Assembly: GCA_038046605.1 (NCBI GenBank)
Contig: JBBSVW010000067.1
Span: forward strand, 1 to 46,015
Length of the DNA: 46,015 nt
Source of the DNA: Candidatus Micrarchaeota archaeon
GTDB taxonomy: Archaea; Micrarchaeota; Micrarchaeia; Norongarragalinales; SBBD01
Direction: 5' to 3'
The notes beneath the pieces were generated by a model, which made no database searches, was not told the origin of the DNA, and saw only the letters and a list, made by a program, of their open reading frames with translations. A program made the translations under genes and the position numbers. Positions 34,175-41,557 of this stretch are shown in pieces; positions within the stretch are counted from its first letter, which is position 1; each line of letters begins with the position of its first letter.

Positions 34175-34753
34175 TTAAATCTTACTCCTCCTCTTCAATT
34201 CCTCCAACACTTTTTGCAGATCGATCCCCCTATTCTCAAGCCCAACCAGTGTGAAAAACAACAGATCAGCCGTCTCCCAGACGACCTCCTTATCCTGCTT
34301 TTGCAATATCGCTTCTTCCAGTTCTCCCGCTTCCTCAATCAGTTTATCCCCGATTTCTTCCGGTTTATTGATAATCGATGAAACATATGATTTCTTCTTC
34401 GGATTTTTCTTCCGATCTTCAATAACTGCAATCAATTCTTCAAGTACGCCCCAACTTTTCTCCTTCTCTTTTCCAAAACAACTCCATTTTCCCGTGTGGC
34501 ATGCCCCATCTCCCATCTGTTCGACTCTTGCAAGTAGGGCATCCTTGTCGCAATCATATTTCAGGTCAACTATTTTCTGGAAATTGCCCGAGGATTCCCC
34601 TTTCTTCATCAATTTGCCGTACCTGCGGCTAAACCTCCAGACATAACCCGTCTTCTTCATCCTTGCGATTGCCTCTTTGTTGCAATAGAATAACGATAGC
34701 ACCTGCTTCGTCTCATAATCCTGCACAATAAGCGGAATCAATTTTTCTTTCAT
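34175..34753 (-). CDS. hisIE: Bifunctional phosphoribosyl-AMP cyclohydrolase / phosphoribosyl-ATP pyrophosphatase
   Basis: KGESSGNFQ, DCDKDALL, ACHTGKWSCF; KLIEEAGE, WETADLLF. Confidence 0.93.
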   Translation of the reverse strand: MKEKLIPLIVQDYETKQVLSLFYCNKEAIARMKKTGYVWRFSRRYGKLMKKGESSGNFQKIVDLKYDCDKDALLARVEQMGDGACHTGKWSCFGKEKEKSWGVLEELIAVIEDRKKNPKKKSYVSSIINKPEEIGDKLIEEAGELEEAILQKQDKEVVWETADLLFFTLVGLENRGIDLQKVLEELKRRSKI

Positions 34754-35512
34754 CTAACTCAACCTCACGTTTACTCCGTTTTTGTCCAAATATTCCTTAA
34801 CCTCTCGAATCGAAAGCTCCTTGTAGTGGAAAAGTCCGGCGGCCAAAGCAGCATCTGCCTTCCCTTTCTTGAAAACATCCGAAAAATCAGATAATTTGCC
34901 AGCTCCTCCGGAAGCAATAATCGGAATCCTTACTGTTTGAGCTACCTTCTTCGTCAATTCCAGATCAAATCCCGTTCTAGTGCCATCGGAATCGATGCTC
35001 GTAAGCAATATTTCCCCGGCTCCCCTTTCTTCGCACTCCTTTGCCCATTCAATTACATCCTTTCCGGTTGGTTTCTTCCCCCCATTTGAATAAACTTCCC
35101 AACTCCTTCCCTTCTTTTTGGCATCAATAGCAACAACTATGCATTGTGAGCCAAACATTTTGGAACCAGAATTTATCAAATCCGGATTTGCAATTGCCGC
35201 AGAATTGATCGCTACCTTGTCGGCTCCATTTTGGAGCACTTTTCTCATCTGATCAGAACTCGAAATTCCTCCTCCAACCGTAAACGGAATATTTATCCTT
35301 CTTGCAACATCCCTCATCCATCTGGAGTTTGTTTTCCTGTCCTGGTTTGTCGCCGTAATATCCAGAAATACCAGCTCATCTGCTCCTTCATTCGAGTAGA
35401 GCTCGGCTAACGCTGCGGGTTCTCCTGCATATTTGAGATTTTCAAACTTTGTTCCCTTCACTACCTTATTGTCCTTCACATCAAGGCAGGGGATTATCCT
35501 TTTACTTAACAT
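34754..35512 (-). CDS. hisF: Imidazole glycerol phosphate synthase, cyclase subunit
   Basis: [32 protein letters not shown]. Confidence 0.97.
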
Positions 35513-36218
35513 TTTTCATCATCTTTGTTAATTCCTTAACTGAAATCTTGTTTTCATAAATCGCTTTTCCAACAATTGCTCCATTAAAACCTATTTTCTT
35601 AAGTTGGACTACATCCTCAACAGAAGATATTCCTCCGCTGGCGATAATTGGCAGGTCGATTGCTGATTTTGCTTCCCTGAAAAAGTCCATTGAAGCTCCC
35701 TTAAGCATTCCATCGCCCGAAATATCCGTTAAAACGACTCCGCCAATTCCTAATCCGTCCAATTCAGAAAGAAAATCAATAACTTTCACCTCAGTTTTCT
35801 CTTTCCATCCTTTCGCATATACTATTCCGTCTTTCACGTCGCAAGCAACCCAAACCTTTTCTCCAAATTCCAAGGCAAAATCCCAAAGTTTTTCTAGATC
35901 CAGGGCTGTAGTACCGATTATTATCCTGTCAACTCCCGATGCAGATAATTTTTCTCCATCCTTAATCGTCCTTATACCTCCACCAACCTGAATTCTTCCT
36001 CCGGCCTGTTTGGCAATACCCTTAATCACCTCCAAATTATTCCCAGTCCCGAAAGCGGCATCCAAATCCACAATGTGCAGCCTATCTGCTTCTTCATTGA
36101 GGAACTTTTTCGCAATTTCAATCGGTTTATCCGAGTACACTTTAGCGCTTTCCCGCTTCCCTTGGGAAAGTCTTACCACTTTTCCTTCAAGCAAATCAAT
36201 CGCAGGTATGATTTCCAT
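35502..36218 (-). CDS. hisA: ProFAR isomerase
   Basis: IIPAIDL..GKVVRL.QG, LHIVDLDAA, QVGGGIR, TDISGDGML. Confidence 0.95.
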   Translation of the reverse strand: MEIIPAIDLLEGKVVRLSQGKRESAKVYSDKPIEIAKKFLNEEADRLHIVDLDAAFGTGNNLEVIKGIAKQAGGRIQVGGGIRTIKDGEKLSASGVDRIIIGTTALDLEKLWDFALEFGEKVWVACDVKDGIVYAKGWKEKTEVKVIDFLSELDGLGIGGVVLTDISGDGMLKGASMDFFREAKSAIDLPIIASGGISSVEDVVQLKKIGFNGAIVGKAIYENKISVKELTKMMKNVK

Positions 36219-36818
36219 TCAAATCAACTCAATGAAGTTTTTCAGAATCAATTCTCCAACCTTTCCGCTTTTTTCAGGGTGAAACTGGAGACCGTAGATA
36301 TTGGCATCTACAACACCGGCACAGAATTTCTCCCCATATTCGCTTTCCAGAAGTTTAATTTCAGAAACAAGTGGCCTTGGGTAATACGAGTGGACGAAAT
36401 ATACCGATGAATCGTTTGGGATTCCATTGAGAAGGGGGTTTAGCTTATTCCTTTTGATAGTATTCCATCCTATTTGAGGTACTTTATCCGCAAATCTAAA
36501 TTTCACAACCTTTCCGAGAAGGAAACTTAATCCCTTAACGCCAGGCGACTCCTCACTTTCCTCAAAAAGCACCTGCAATCCAAGGCAAATCCCTAAAATC
36601 GGCTTTCCGGATGTAACAAAATCCCCCAATTCCTTCTTTTTTACTTCGATTTTCTGCATGGCCGCTCCAAATGATCCAACTCCGGGAATTACTAGCGCAT
36701 CAAACTCTTGAAAATTGCCACCTTTAGTTATCACTGCTTCGGCTCCCTGCTTTTTCAGCGCAAAGGAGATGCTAAACAAATTCCCCATCCCGTAATTCAG
36801 GATTCCGATTTTCTTCAT
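36219..36818 (-). CDS. hisH: Imidazole glycerol phosphate synthase, glutaminase subunit
   Basis: YGMGNL, PGVGSF, LGICLGLQ, YFVHSY, QFHPEKS. ATG 36818 overlaps the hisB stop. Confidence 0.96.
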   Translation of the reverse strand: MKKIGILNYGMGNLFSISFALKKQGAEAVITKGGNFQEFDALVIPGVGSFGAAMQKIEVKKKELGDFVTSGKPILGICLGLQVLFEESEESPGVKGLSFLLGKVVKFRFADKVPQIGWNTIKRNKLNPLLNGIPNDSSVYFVHSYYPRPLVSEIKLLESEYGEKFCAGVVDANIYGLQFHPEKSGKVGELILKNFIELI

Positions 36819-37402
36819 AAAACTCCCTTTGTACTGGCTACCGCTCCGGCTAGCCGTTCGTCCATTTCGCAAGCAATCCTCATCGCTCTTCCGAAAGCTT
36901 TGAACAAAGCTTCCGCTTTGTGGTGTTCGTTTCTTCCGTACTCTAAGTTTAAGTGCAAATTCATTTGACAGTTCTGAGCGAAAGCTCCGAAGAAATCCTC
37001 AATCAACTCGGTTGGCAAATCTCCTATTTTCTCCCTCTCAAATTTCACGTTATAGACGAATGCATACCTGCCGCTGAGATCAACTGCAGCTGATGCTAGG
37101 GATTCGTCCATCGGCAAGAGAAAGAAACCGTATCTTCGAATTCCTTTCTTTTCCCCGAGTGCCTTCTTGAACGCACTACCTAGAACTATTCCAATATCCT
37201 CGGTCAAGTGGTGTTCGTCGACATTCAGATCTCCCATTGCTTCAACCTCCAAATCGAATAATCCTTGCTTTGCAAACAGCGAAAGCATGTGCTCCAGGAA
37301 GCCGATCCCGCAATTACCTGAATACTTTCCTGACCCATCGATATTCAACTTCACTTTCACTTCCGTTTCGTTTGTTTTCCTTTCAATTTCTGCGGTTCTC
37401 AT
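36815..37402 (-). CDS. hisB: Imidazoleglycerol-phosphate dehydratase (monofunctional)
   Basis: RKTNETEV, GFLEHML, DEHHLTEDIGI, NEHHKAEALFKA, STKGVL. Confidence 0.96.
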   Translation of the reverse strand: MRTAEIERKTNETEVKVKLNIDGSGKYSGNCGIGFLEHMLSLFAKQGLFDLEVEAMGDLNVDEHHLTEDIGIVLGSAFKKALGEKKGIRRYGFFLLPMDESLASAAVDLSGRYAFVYNVKFEREKIGDLPTELIEDFFGAFAQNCQMNLHLNLEYGRNEHHKAEALFKAFGRAMRIACEMDERLAGAVASTKGVL

Positions 37403-38127
37403 AAATTTCCCCTCTTTTCAGCCTCATCATTTACGATTTTCATCAATTTTCCGAAATCAGGTTCTGATTGAACATATTGTGGCTTGGCAAAACGGATCAA
37501 TTCGGCATTTTTCCGGACGACGATCCCAACTCCCCCTTTCTGGACCGCCTCACCGATAAAGTATTTGTCACTTTCAGAATCTCCGAAGGCGAATATGCAT
37601 GAATACGCAAATCCCCTCTTGGCAATTTGTCTTAATGCTATTAATTTCTTCTTCGATTCCATTACCGGGCCCTTGAAACCGACCATTTTTCTCCTCTCAA
37701 TTTTCAATTCCGTGCAAAAAATGTTATTTTCTGGAACGCCTAACCGCTTAGCTATCGATTCAGAAATGGGTCGATACTCCGAAGTAATAAAAAATACCTC
37801 AAATTGTCTGTTTTTCGTAAAATATTGGAAAAACTCTTTTGCACCTTTGGCTAAACGGGCACTTTCACCGATTTGTTCAAAAAACTCAACTGGAATCTCT
37901 CCCTTCTCATTGAGAATTTCCTTCAAAATCAGTTCGACATCAATTGAAGGGTAGATTTTGCTTCTTGGAATACCAAATTCCTTACTGATTCTTCCGGGAT
38001 TGCTTTTCACCCACTCGTAAATTTTCTCCGCTTCCTTTCTTTTTCCAAATACTTCGAAAAATTGGAATATCGCATCCTCCTTTGTTATGGTTTCGTCCAC
38101 ATCGAAAACCAATGCTATTTTTTCCAT
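37399..38127 (-). CDS. HAD-superfamily phosphatase, candidate histidinol-phosphate phosphatase
   Basis: FDVDET (motif I), ITS (II), K (III), GDSESD (IV). Overlaps both hisC and hisB. Confidence 0.7.
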   Translation of the reverse strand: MEKIALVFDVDETITKEDAIFQFFEVFGKRKEAEKIYEWVKSNPGRISKEFGIPRSKIYPSIDVELILKEILNEKGEIPVEFFEQIGESARLAKGAKEFFQYFTKNRQFEVFFITSEYRPISESIAKRLGVPENNIFCTELKIERRKMVGFKGPVMESKKKLIALRQIAKRGFAYSCIFAFGDSESDKYFIGEAVQKGGVGIVVRKNAELIRFAKPQYVQSEPDFGKLMKIVNDEAEKRGNL

Positions 38128-39179
38128 ATTCGGATTACCTCCCTTAGTGCTTTGATGAATCTCTCGTTCTCACTCTTTGTTCCAACCGTGACTCTGATGC
38201 AATTTTCCATTAACGAGAGTGAGGATCGGTCCCTTACGACAATTCCCTTTTCCGCAATTGCCTTCGAAACCAGCTTTGAATCGAATTCTTTCGGAATCCT
38301 GAAAACTGAAAAATTTGTTACTGTGGGGAAGACCTCCAAATTCGAATTTCTCAATTGCTTCTCCAGCCATTCCTTTTCCAGCATCATTTCATTAACCCAA
38401 TTTTCCATCCGGGCCTTGTTTTCCAGCGCTTTCAAAGCCAGATAGTTGGGAATCGCTCCCACATTGTAAGGCGCCTTGATTTTCCGCAAATTTTCGATGA
38501 TTTTCTTGTTCGCAATGGCATAACCGACTCGCAAGGCAGCCAGCCCCCAGGCTTTTGAAAGTGTTTTGCTTACGATCAGGTTTTCATATTCCAAAACCAG
38601 CGGAGCAAGCGTCTTTCCTGCGAATTCCCCATACGCTTCATCGACGAAAACAACGCAATTTGCCTTTTCTGCTATTTCCTTAATCCTTTCAAGCTCAACG
38701 ACATTCCCAAGAGGTGAATTTGGCGAAATAATCACTATCATTTTCGTATTTTCATCGATTTTGGCAAGAACTTTATCGACATTCGGCTGGAAATCATCCT
38801 CCACAAGAACCGCTCTAATCTTAACTCCCGATATTTCAGCGCAGACATTGAACATTGAATAGCCGGGCTCCACTGTAATGATGTTATCCCCTTTCTCAGC
38901 GAATGTTCGGATCGCCAGGTCAATAATCTCGTCCGATCCGTTACCAACCATAACGTTCTCAGAAGTTAGCCCTCCTCCCACATACTCTGCCAATTTACCT
39001 CGCAATTCAAGCAGATCCGAATCAGGATAGCGGTTTAGGTCCACTCCTTCAAACTGGGCGGTGCTGCCGAATGCATTTTCATTCGCATCCATGAAAATCT
39101 CCGCTTTTTTATATAAGTCGCGGGCACAAACGTATGGCGAAAGCCGCCTAACTGTTTCCCTTGCTTTAATTTTTCTCAT
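38115..39179 (-). CDS. hisC: Histidinol-phosphate aminotransferase
   Basis: DANEN, NRYPD, GNGSDEII, VDEAYGEF, KTLSKAWGLAALRVGY. Confidence 0.95.
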   Translation of the reverse strand: MRKIKARETVRRLSPYVCARDLYKKAEIFMDANENAFGSTAQFEGVDLNRYPDSDLLELRGKLAEYVGGGLTSENVMVGNGSDEIIDLAIRTFAEKGDNIITVEPGYSMFNVCAEISGVKIRAVLVEDDFQPNVDKVLAKIDENTKMIVIISPNSPLGNVVELERIKEIAEKANCVVFVDEAYGEFAGKTLAPLVLEYENLIVSKTLSKAWGLAALRVGYAIANKKIIENLRKIKAPYNVGAIPNYLALKALENKARMENWVNEMMLEKEWLEKQLRNSNLEVFPTVTNFSVFRIPKEFDSKLVSKAIAEKGIVVRDRSSLSLMENCIRVTVGTKSENERFIKALREVIRIWKK

Positions 39180-41084
39180 ATTTCTCCCTCCAATCTCCTC
39201 CTTACCGAATTAGCGTGTGCTTCAAGCCCCTCAGCTTCTGCTACCGCTACAATAGCATCCGAAATATTCTCCAAACCCTTTTGCTCCAATTTCAGGAAGT
39301 TCATTTCCCGAACAAAATCCTTAGCTGAAAGCCCGGAATAGCTCCTTGCAAACCCTCCGGTAGGCAAAATGTGATTGGGCCCGGCTCCATAATCCCCAGC
39401 TGCTTCGCAGGAGTAGTTGCCTATGAAAATCGCTCCCGCAGTTGTGACGCTTTTCATCCACGCAAAGGGCCTTTCAATAACCAGCTCTAAGTGCTCGGGA
39501 GCATACTTGTTGGCAAAATCGATTGCTTGCTGGATGTTTCTTGCCAACAATAAAGCTCCATTATTCTCAAACGCTTTCTTGACAATCTGCTTTCTTGGAA
39601 GCATTATCGCTTGCTTTTTGATCTCCTCAATAGTGTTTTTGATTATCACCTCGCTTGTGGAAACCAAAATCGGACAGGCATTCGCATCGTGTTCAGCCTG
39701 CGCCAGCAAATCCGCAGCAATAAACCTCGGATTTGCAGTTTCATCCGCAATAATCATCACTTCCGATGGTCCAGCAGGCGAATCAATTGCAATTCCGTAG
39801 CTTTGGGCTTCCAGTTTGGCTGCCGCCACATAAGCATTTCCGGGTCCCACGATTTTATTGACCCTTGGCACTTTGTACGTTCCAAAACCCATTGCAGCAA
39901 TTGCCTGAGCTCCTCCCAACCTGAAAACCCGATCCGCTCCGGCAATATCCGCAGCCACCAGAATCGCAGGATTGCATTCTTTTAGTGAATTGCAGGGAGA
40001 ACATAGTATTACCTCCCCTACACCCGCTACTTTTGCAGGTACGATCCCCATCAAAACCGAAGAAGGATAAGCGGCAGTTCCTCCAGGGGCATAAACCCCA
40101 ACCCGTTCAAGCGGCCTTATTTCCTTTCCCATGCTTCCCCCATCGACTTTCATCTCCCATCTTTGCGGAAGCTCCCTTTTGCTGAACTCCTCGATATTCC
40201 GTTTCATCAATTTTAGGGAATCGATCAGTTTCTGTGGCACTTTGGCATAGGCGGCCATTATTTCCTCTCTGGAAACCTCGGATTCCGATGGTTTCAACTC
40301 AACCTTATCATAACGCAGCTGGTATTCGGCAACCGCCTCATCCTTTCTCTTGAGCACGTTTTCAAATACCTGGCGAACGGTTTGCTTTATCTCCGGAGAA
40401 CGCTCCTTTCCCCTGAAAAAGAAACGTTTCAACTCTGTATCTGAAAGCTCCTCCAGCTTCCTTACTTCGAATTTCCAATCGTTTTGGATTTTTGAAACCA
40501 ATTCCGCAACTTGGAAGCCTTTTGTGACTACCAACCCCTTATTGGCAATTAAAATCGCACTTGTTTCCAGAATTTCCTCTTTTATGATGAGCCCATTCTC
40601 CCTCAATGTTTTACCCGTTGCAGTCAGGTCGATAACCGCGTCCGCGATCCCTGCATTGACGCTGGCTTCAACTGCCCCATCCAAGATTACCAGTTCGGCG
40701 TCAATTCCTTTGCTGATTAGATATTTTCTGGCGATATTCGGGAAAGAGGTGGCTACTCTATTGATTTTCTTCCCGTTTTGCTCTGGGGCCGCATAAACTA
40801 AAGTGCATCCTCCAAAAGGCAAGTCCAAAATAAGTTCACAATCGCTTTCCTTTTCCGTTATGATGTCTTTTCCGGTAATGCCAACATCCGCTAGACCCGA
40901 AGAAACATAGTTAGGGATATCCCTAGCTCTTGCAAATAGTACTTTGATTTCAGAATCTTCAGAATTAGTGAAATAGGCGCGGTCGGATCCGTTAAGTGTT
41001 ATCCCTAGTGCAGCTAAAAGCTTCCTTGAAGGCGCACTCAAAGCGCCCTTGTTTGGTATTGCCAATGTGAAGAGAACCGCCCAT
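39176..41084 (-). CDS. hisGD: Fused short-form ATP phosphoribosyltransferase / histidinol dehydrogenase (HisG-HisD); start codon out of frame
   Basis: AIPNKG, RARDIP, DVGITGKD, ATSFPNI, GAVEA, TGKTLRENGL (HisG); GVYAPGG, GGAQAIAA, GPGNAYV, PAGPSE, AQAEH, YAPEHL, GPNHILPT (HisD). The main frame is closed upstream by TAA at 41092-41090 and has only TTG 41065; the SD-led ATG 41084 is one base out of frame. Confidence 0.9.
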
Positions 41085-41130
41085 TTTCCTTAGACCTCAT
41101 TTGATTGATGCAAAAGTATGCACTAGCTAG

Positions 41131-41159
41131 TATTTAAATGTTTCCCACAAAAGTGGGAA
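41131..41159 (-). promoter_or_regulatory. his operon TATA box with an adjacent perfect palindrome TTCCCAC-N4-GTGGGAA
   Basis: Minus-strand TTTAAATA at 41138-41131; palindrome at 41142-41159. Confidence 0.6.
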
Positions 41160-41164
41160 TTCAA

Positions 41165-41557
41165 TCAGATAGGCTTGAAACTGATTTTCACAGCGCCTTC
41201 CTTCAGTAGTTTCCTTTTCAGCTCCTCCTTATCCTTGATTGAAGACGGCTCGCAGATAACCTGCCATTCGGCCTCCTTTCCTCTTGAAATTGATCTTGAT
41301 TCTGTTGAAACCAGATCGACACCATTCTCGGCCATCACTTTGGCCATCCTTGCAAGGGAGCCGGGCGCATCAGACATAGCAATAATTATCATAAGTAGCG
41401 ATTTTTCGGTGGTGTTTGTAAGAATTAGTCGCTGGTTTACTTCATCCAGATTGACCAGGACTTCCGAATCCTCCTTTATTCGAAGCGTTTGCCTGAAGGA
41501 AGAAGGAATCTGAAGCCTACCCTTTGAATCCACCTTGGAGATCTCGGATTTGCCCAT
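41165..41557 (-). CDS. AbrB/MraZ-type DNA-binding domain + ACT domain regulator
   Basis: SKVDSKGRLQIPSSFRQTLRI (swapped hairpin); MSDAPGSLARMAKVMAENGVDL (ACT). Confidence 0.8.
   Translation of the reverse strand: MGKSEISKVDSKGRLQIPSSFRQTLRIKEDSEVLVNLDEVNQRLILTNTTEKSLLMIIIAMSDAPGSLARMAKVMAENGVDLVSTESRSISRGKEAEWQVICEPSSIKDKEELKRKLLKEGAVKISFKPI

Follow-up and report, generated by a model that had tools for sequence, protein, structure and literature searches.

A candidate +1 frameshift site at a histidine codon in the hisG-hisD leader of a micrarchaeon

How is a gene of histidine biosynthesis translated when the only start codon with a good ribosome binding site lies in another reading frame? 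The question is raised by a fused hisG-hisD gene on the minus strand of a 46,015-nucleotide (nt) stretch of DNA from a Candidatus Micrarchaeota archaeon (contig JBBSVW010000067.1 of assembly GCA_038046605.1; hereafter the window, whose numbering is used throughout). The leader of this gene holds an ATG led by a Shine-Dalgarno (SD) sequence, a short open reading frame (ORF) that begins there, and a CTT-CAC sequence at which the HisG frame can be entered by a shift of one nucleotide in the +1 direction. From the comparative analysis presented below we consider it probable that a programmed +1 ribosomal frameshift, its rate set by the supply of histidyl-tRNA (His-tRNA), gates the synthesis of HisG-HisD. 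Comparison with relatives strongly supports the frameshift itself, and histidine sensing would be the most economical interpretation of it; the occurrence of the slip, the direction of the regulation and the identity of the tRNA involved we infer from the layout of the locus.

Reading frames of the hisG leader

The ATG at 41082..41084 is preceded, across a 9-nt spacer, by TGAGGT (41094..41099), a good SD sequence since the 16S rRNA of this genome ends in GATCACCTCA, the complement of which is TGAGGTGATC. The zero frame continues with the codons GGC GGT TCT, reads CTT and CAC, and ends after 30 codons (40992..41084). Its second and third codons form an internal SD-like hexamer, GGCGGT (41076..41081), and the 3-nt spacer TCT separates this hexamer from the putative shift site CTT CAC A (41066..41072), in which CTT (Leu, 41072-41070) would occupy the P site and CAC (His, 41069-41067) the A site. 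The HisG-HisD fusion lies in the +1 frame (39176..41071, with its stop at 39176) and ACA (41068-41066) is the first +1 codon, the A at 41066 being followed directly by TTG. Read from its upstream stop, the HisG frame runs TAA (41092-41090) GGA AAA TGG GCG GTT CTC TTC ACA TTG and has no ATG or GTG before the conserved core; the TTG (41063..41065) is its sole canonical start, a rival initiation site that opens a 629-residue ORF (39176..41065). If CTTC is read as a single step, an uninterrupted HisG domain of 216 residues is obtained. A preliminary description of this DNA, made without database searches, had pointed to the SD-led ATG at 41084 with its 30-residue ORF ending at 40992, to the +1 position of a HisG frame that lacks an ATG of its own and to the stop just upstream, and the sequence and the ORF listing bear it out on each of these points. 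The listing also contains the overlapping third-frame ORF of 20 residues (41038..41100) that it had mentioned; we found no role for this ORF, whose conservation was not examined.

Pfam places HisG (PF01634) at residues 46-194 (E 9e-47) and Histidinol_dh (PF00815) at residues 219-625 (E 1e-157) of the 629-residue ORF, and the top PDB matches are ATP phosphoribosyltransferases; the protein is thus a short-form HisG, without HisG_C, joined to HisD. The same HisG-HisD fusion is present in G009, G010, G011, G021, G022, G033 and G037, with open frames of 580-676 residues.

Two other ways of reaching the HisG frame were considered and rejected. Against a -2 shift onto CUC stands the codon 5' of CTT, which differs among the loci (TCT, TCA, TTA, TGT, TAT, TTG, CGC, TGC, CTG), and the site has no homopolymer on which transcriptional slippage could occur.

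Conservation of the arrangement in related genomes

We defined the layout as a start codon followed by 3-13 codons and [C/G]TT-CAY, where HisG must lie in +1 and have its core at most 150 nt away, and classified 71 micrarchaeal HisG loci drawn from a sample of 401 genomes of the phylum together with the whole order to which the window belongs. The layout was found in 21 of the 71: 15 within the order, five in family f19 (G143, G302, G318, G316 and G307) and one in family f12 (G325). HisG is present in 18 of the 68 genomes of the order, and 14 of these 18 loci have an SD-led start (11 ATG and 3 GTG), 3-12 codons, CTT-CAY and HisG in +1. The fifteenth (locus L013 of G040) has the same layout with GTT-CAC, and its hisG is interrupted by frame breaks and stops some 55 codons in, so that it counts weakly; this gene may be decaying or misassembled. 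In all 21 loci the +1 frame from the site to the HisG core is free of stops. An in-frame ATG, GTG or TTG is absent from 12 of the 21, against not one of the other 50 loci (Fisher p = 2e-8, a value that, like our other p-values, overstates the support because the relatives share ancestry, and to that extent tells against us). Nineteen loci have CTT as their shift codon and two have GTT; the A-site codon is CAC in 17 and CAT in 4. The zero-frame ORFs have 15-50 residues and an unconserved end point within the order, and in f19 and f12 the stop comes 3-8 codons past the site. The loci of the order carry one His codon at the shift site, and a second directly after it in G021 and G022. The preliminary description had proposed that the hisG 5' ends of relatives be compared for an out-of-frame start with CTT-CAY as opposed to an in-frame ATG, and it is the former, SD-led, that recurs (21 of 71, 12 of them with no in-frame start at all). 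On this comparison the out-of-frame arrangement is conserved, beyond what chance would produce.

The HisG tree (69 rows; an earlier tree had 49) distributes the layout widely. As a label on this tree it needs seven changes, of which at least four are forced by well-supported branches. The main carrier clade (support 96/86) unites the window, families f1 and f2, G022, G368, G301 and the metagenome locus L112; the other carriers are the pair G172 and G411, the long-form pair G016 and G034, the f19 clade (support 100/99), G325 and the long-branch G307. It accompanies HisG-HisD fusions, short HisG and long HisG alike, and by the tree's topology it is present on at least four separate HisG lineages.

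The N-terminus that a shift would create is also the one expected. The preliminary description had suggested that a slip from CUU to UUC would give a canonical Leu-Thr HisG N-terminus, and two comparisons support it. The predicted junction consists of Leu, then Thr or Ile, then the A-[IVL]-P core, and relatives with a normal ATG that are nested among the carriers begin MLTIAIPNKG (L108, G087) or MITIAIPNKG (G011), matching this junction. The trans-frame N-terminus moreover aligns, from residue 2-5 onwards, with the N-termini of solved HisG proteins, such as that of 5u99, whose chain starts GAMLRVAVPNKGALSEP.

Beyond the phylum a different picture is seen. We read 38 of 59 genome loci by eye, 30 of them non-Micrarchaeota, and the layout was not seen in these 30; 28 have an in-frame ATG at most 11 codons from the core, typically giving MIIAIPNKGRL, and the exceptions are L042, with only a TTG, and L050, with only far-upstream starts. 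Among 80 metagenome HisG loci, the 60 that matched from query residue 1-6 were scanned for CTT-CAY, which stands in the right frame in three, all of Micrarchaeota type: the window's own contig, that of G022, and L107, whose upstream HisG-frame residues are identical to those of G025. It is absent in that frame from the other 57 scanned; one of these, L112, carries GTT-CAC, the scan of the other 56 having covered CTT-CAY alone. Within the 1.64-Mb window genome the strict motif occurs three times, and only the hisG copy has both an SD sequence and a long +1 ORF starting there. A looser scan of the same genome gave three further CTT-CAY sites, on contigs C28, C50 and C79, that have a long +1 frame and lack an upstream in-frame start; none of them has an SD sequence. 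As a side observation, HisG was matched in none of the six genomes of the same genus (G001-G006, 84-91% complete), which makes the distribution of the his operon patchy even within the genus.

Which property of the site is conserved can be judged from the codons that it shares with HisG. Across the order's 14 loci with CTT, the codon of the HisG frame into which the C of CTT falls specifies seven different amino acids (Leu, His, Tyr, Val, Ile, Cys, Ala) and always ends in C; in the window genome C makes up 28% of third positions, CTT makes up 32% of Leu codons and His 1.45% of all codons. The distance from site to HisG core ranges over 10-88 nt in the 21 layout loci while the site itself is constant, and because of this range the N-terminal strand of HisG does not pin the site. 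The pattern indicates that the constraint acts on nucleotides and not on HisG residues. A second recurrent element precedes the shift codon. A hexamer RGNRRT stands at -9 to -4 in 18 of the 21 layout loci (GGCGGT in the window; AGGGAT, GAGGAT, GAGGGT, AGGGGT or GGTGGT in relatives), the exceptions being GGCGAC, AGTGAG and GGGTGT. If one 16S tail is assumed for all genomes, pairing between the anti-SD and the 14 nt that precede the shift codon has a mean energy of -6.65 kcal/mol in the 21 loci, as against -2.70 kcal/mol at the same geometry in 48 canonical HisG genes and -2.48 kcal/mol in 1713 coding windows, only 3.2% of which lie at or below -6.65 kcal/mol. By this measure the SD-like hexamer is significantly enriched before the shift codon, and we regard it as a putative stimulator.

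The cassette is not restricted to the start of hisG. In G009, G010, G021, G011 and G033 (loci L007, L009, L008, L004 and L006 among them), and in the metagenome contig L108, a gene for tRNA-His(GTG) lies directly 5' of hisG on the same strand, some 40-115 nt upstream of it in L004, L006, L007, L008 and L009. Four of these genomes (G009, G010, G021 and G011, at L007, L009, L008 and L004) carry a second cassette between a promoter-like region and the tRNA, about 190-230 nt before the HisG core; one example reads ATG GGC GGT TTA CTT CAC. Here the zero frame ends after 3-10 codons and the +1 frame runs on without a stop for 57-63 codons, right across the tRNA gene, until its TGA overlaps the next start as ATGA (G009, G010, G011) or falls 8 nt before it (G021). 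Because the +1 ORF of G011 ends on a normal hisG ATG, this apparent loss of the arrangement still retains the putative switch upstream. L108 has the same hexamer and CTT-CAC upstream of its tRNA, the start codon lying beyond the stretch that was read; in G033 no second cassette was found upstream of tRNA-His.

Other copies open relay ORFs or the frame of a regulator-like protein. In G342 and G150 of family f12, ATG GAA AGG GGT, a spacer (TTG or TGC) and CTT CAC C lead into +1 ORFs, 45 and 35 codons long and not conserved, that end on a normal hisG start, and a similar relay ORF in G022 ends as GTGA on the in-frame GTG. In G316, G318 and G377 the +1 ORF that follows AGG GAT, a spacer (TTG, TTT or CTT) and CTT CAT encodes a small AbrB/SpoVT-like protein (L211 110-376, minus strand; L208 40-249, plus strand; L213 66-254, plus strand), whose frame is accessible solely through the same +1 shift at CTT-CAT. 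These proteins match the N-terminal domain of a gene adjacent to hisG in the window (41165-41557) with a pairwise E of 4e-5, and all four could be aligned; MazE_antitoxin Pfam matches are weak and below cut-off in two of the three. No tRNA genes were found in these three loci. Altogether the upstream copies of G009, G010, G011, G021, G022, G150, G316, G318, G342 and G377 have a +1 frame open for 33-89 codons that ends on, or at most 8 nt from, the next start; ten independent-looking copies that all stay open in this way make it hard to avoid the conclusion that ribosomes enter the +1 frame. The +1 ORF of a further upstream copy, in G302, ends 160 nt before hisG. An upstream match in G352 was judged to be due to chance, as it lacks an SD-like hexamer and opens a +1 ORF that stops a long way from hisG. 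On balance we lean, by a small measure, towards the broader view that the Micrarchaeia possess their own family of +1 switches sensing His-tRNA, composed of an SD-like hexamer, 3 nt and [C/G]UU-CAY, which would gate HisG, relay ORFs, an AbrB-type regulator and ORFs that span tRNA-His.

A proposed mechanism and its alternatives

In the mechanism that we propose, initiation would occur at the SD-led ATG (41084) and Met-Gly-Gly-Ser-Leu would be read first. The ribosome would then pause at codon 5: CUU in the P site would be held by peptidyl-tRNA-Leu, CAC would await decoding in the A site, and GGCGGU, 3 nt upstream, would pair with the tail of the 16S rRNA and favor re-pairing in +1. The tRNA-Leu would re-pair on UUC (a GAG anticodon would give G-U, A-U and G-C pairs), ACA would be the next codon, and HisG-HisD would be translated. 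With plentiful His-tRNA, CAC would be decoded fast and the ribosome would reach the stop 25 codons on, making only the 30-residue peptide; with scarce His-tRNA the pause would lengthen and more ribosomes would shift. Since fast decoding of CAC competes with the slip, HisG-HisD synthesis would rise as histidine falls, and the tightly packed downstream genes mean that the whole his operon would probably be gated too. HisG_C (PF08029) was absent from the search of the window genome, which is 90.7% complete, and a single HisRS-like gene was found at that completeness; a fused HisG without the C-terminal histidine-binding domain and a single HisRS-like gene leave no evident allosteric route for histidine feedback, a gap that would be closed by sensing during translation.

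Release factor 2 and antizyme provide known cases of regulatory +1 frameshifting, and in prfB, the release factor 2 gene, the SD sequence stands 3 nt from CUU. The preliminary description had likened the CUU of the window to that of prfB; the resemblance turns out to be closer than it claimed, with an SD-like hexamer 3 nt before CTT here as well. Both have a short zero-frame ORF and the main product in +1 (with one TTG in frame in the window), CUU in the P site (each layout shift codon being trailed by C), and, in our proposal, a slow A-site codon at which the speed of decoding would reflect the amount of what the gene helps to make. A recoding review (PMC5009743) describes for prfB both the SD stimulator and the CUU shift site, as well as the loss of the frameshift in some relatives, which also has its parallel here. 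Unlike prfB, where the A-site codon is the stop UGA read by the gene's own product, all 21 loci carry the His codon CAY at this place, the gene is the unrelated hisG and the sensed quantity would be a charged tRNA instead of a release factor; re-pairing would be on UUC and not UUU, the site lies 4-14 codons from the start, and the host is an archaeon. By analogy, the leader would work like prfB without belonging to the prfB family.

There are likenesses to other systems. In Ty1, ABP140 and EST3 (CUU-AGG-C, CUU-AGU-U) a tRNA-Leu on CUU slips by +1 before a slow sense codon (PMC5009743), but that codon is read by a permanently scarce tRNA unrelated to the gene's pathway, no SD-like stimulator is involved and the host is a eukaryote. 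As in the hisL attenuation of bacterial his operons (mentioned in PMC10138114), His-tRNA would be sensed by a ribosome that decodes His codons of a short leader ORF, and the expression of the his operon would be set accordingly; instead of a run of His codons and alternative hairpins that stop transcription, the His codons here number one or two, no structure is predicted and the output would be a change of frame. A further parallel is the hungry-codon shifting that Gallant and colleagues described in starved Escherichia coli, where ribosomes shift by a single base at the starved codon when one aminoacyl-tRNA runs short; those shifts are known as an experimental error phenomenon. The 2016 recoding review, in its available part, states that no trans-frame proteins are known to be made by hungry-codon shifting for starvation conditions (PMC5009743). 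Our full-text searches (articles without their supplements) yielded no account of frameshifting for hisG or for Micrarchaeota; the only hisG paper to mention frameshifting does so in a reference to copA, and the word histidine has no occurrence in the accessible portion of a survey of prokaryotic frame transitions (PMC3711429). If our proposal is true, this would be the first natural case of hungry-codon frameshifting that controls amino-acid biosynthesis, the first SD-stimulated +1 frameshift in Archaea, and an archaeal, frame-based counterpart of his attenuation, in which a short cassette ties charged tRNA-His to the first and last enzymes of histidine synthesis in hosts with tiny genomes and a HisG devoid of the usual feedback domain. 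Gene callers would also have a reason not to truncate such hisG genes. To our knowledge, the translational sensing of amino-acid supply in archaea is largely unknown, and we know of no leader-peptide attenuation established there.

A number of points weigh against the proposal. A +1 shift at a sense codon in the A site is usually inefficient, and sensing through one His codon alone may be weak. The GTT-CAC variants (G040, G325, L112) would re-pair more poorly after a slip. No stimulatory RNA structure is predicted for the 129-nt leader, which folds no better than its shuffles (z = 0.04), and a downstream RNA stimulator was rejected on that value. As to the tRNAs, tRNA-His was not found by ARAGORN, Rfam or BLAST in the window genome, a 90.7%-complete bin with long tRNA introns, and tRNA-Leu(GAG) is a BLAST-level candidate anticodon arm without an ARAGORN call. 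All genomes compared, finally, are metagenome-assembled.

The remaining adverse points belong to an alternative without any frameshift, which we think unlikely. HisG would start at TTG 41065, or in relatives at a GTG, TTG or near-cognate codon, and the short ORF would be a regulatory upstream ORF in which a stall at the His codon alters downstream initiation. TTG 41065 is indeed in frame, and the hexamer GGCGGT, sitting 10 nt upstream, could act as its SD sequence, and for this one genome, taken singly, a start there is possible; 9 of the 21 layout loci have an in-frame GTG or TTG, the in-frame start yields a normal-looking N-terminus in G016, G034, G316 and G318 (MR[VL]GVPSKG, MTIAVPSKG), and in G316, G318 and G022 a stop overlaps the in-frame GTG as GTGA. 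Yet the HisG frame of the other 12 loci has no ATG, GTG or TTG, and in G325 a TAG stands immediately before TTC. The codon at the position of TTG 41065 varies among relatives (TTG, GTG, GTC, ATC or ATA), so this position looks like an ordinary Leu, Val or Ile codon of the first beta strand, and a protein started there would lose residues that, in the alignment with solved HisG proteins, correspond to the first strand. The zero-frame stops, moreover, fall 15-50 codons into HisG at variable places, and the model leaves unaccounted for the upstream copies, with their +1 frame open up to the next start.

Equally improbable, in our estimation, is a +1 shift that is real but constitutive, operating at a low fixed level or tolerated as a corrected indel, independently of histidine. 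The SD-like stimulator could by itself produce a fixed level of shifting, and the A and Y of CAY belong also to the first +1 codon (Thr or Ile). The C of CAY, however, is free of HisG coding constraint, and His is nevertheless the A-site codon of L112 and of every one of the 21 genome loci. All cassette copies seen sit in his loci, beside hisG, tRNA-His or the adjacent regulator; in the 1.64-Mb genome the strict motif, as noted, is joined to an SD sequence and a long +1 ORF at hisG alone; and a neutral corrected indel would not persist on several HisG lineages.

The base count at the site was checked with contigs, not raw reads, of four public runs from three studies, aligned to 40700-41500. 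No insertion or deletion was present at the site in any of them. Record 2 of X1 (40804-41500) and record 4 of X2 (40856-41235), from runs that may be the source sample of the window, have no differences over the site, nor has record 17 of X5 from a third study (41037-41139, depth 18); record 7 of X4 (41068-41218) has one substitution and no gaps. The base count is not an assembly error, and the one-base error or mutation that the preliminary description had raised as an alternative is ruled against by the same count in independent assemblies. That the layout is an artefact or recent decay is thus scarcely credible: one additional G in ATGGGC would yield it and the genome is a metagenome bin at about 7x coverage, but contigs from three studies agree without indels, the frame of 629 codons is uninterrupted and gives full-length Pfam matches, and, as the stronger argument, 20 other genomes share the layout with differing sequence around the start.

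An incidental observation concerns strain variation. The 103-nt X5 contig over the leader matches the window exactly and the adjoining contigs of X5 differ by some 7-11%; the leader may be better conserved between strains than its flanks.

Neighboring genes, promoter elements and tRNA inventory

Downstream of hisG-hisD, the genes hisC, an HAD phosphatase, hisB, hisH, hisA, hisF and hisIE (34175..39179, minus strand) abut or overlap, and with hisG-hisD they make up a complete his operon. The HAD-family hydrolase between hisC and hisB (37399-38127, minus strand) is likely to be the histidinol-phosphate phosphatase. On the other side, and on the same strand, 41165..41557 encodes an AbrB/MazE-like protein with an ACT domain that begins with a normal ATG. 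Its MazE_antitoxin match scores 25.5 bits (cut-off 24.7) and its ACT match 25.5 bits, slightly below the cut-off of 27; these domains make the product a candidate amino-acid-sensing regulator.

Between this gene and the leader lie promoter-like elements, both on the minus strand: an inverted repeat TTCCCAC-N4-GTGGGAA (41142..41159) and, next to it, a TATA-like box TTTAAATA (41131..41138), from which the usual archaeal promoter spacing would put the transcript start near 41105-41108. A direct repeat with 11-bp spacing, GTGGGAA-N4-GTGGGA[AT], is found 5' of hisG in 15 of the 18 loci of the order, the window form being inverted (loci of relatives L002-L013, L079, L080, L099 and L103). In 7 of 17 loci of relatives CTTAAATA or TTTAAATA adjoins the repeat. 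The element GTGGGAAA occurs three times in the window against 2.1 expected, which is not above chance, and its meaning rests on its position in relatives. The repeat probably serves the his operon as a binding site for a transcription factor. Because it sits upstream of the tRNA where there is one, tRNA-His and the his operon may share one transcript.

In the window genome ARAGORN called 8 tRNAs without introns and 21 when introns were allowed; it called tRNA-Leu(TAG), and tRNA-Leu(CAG) only with relaxed settings on an excised stretch. Long tRNA introns, apparently also at positions beyond the anticodon loop, were observed on contigs C1, C23, C26, C43, C62 and C73. The 16S rRNA likewise holds a large insertion, since 640 positions of the model are matched over about 2 kb.

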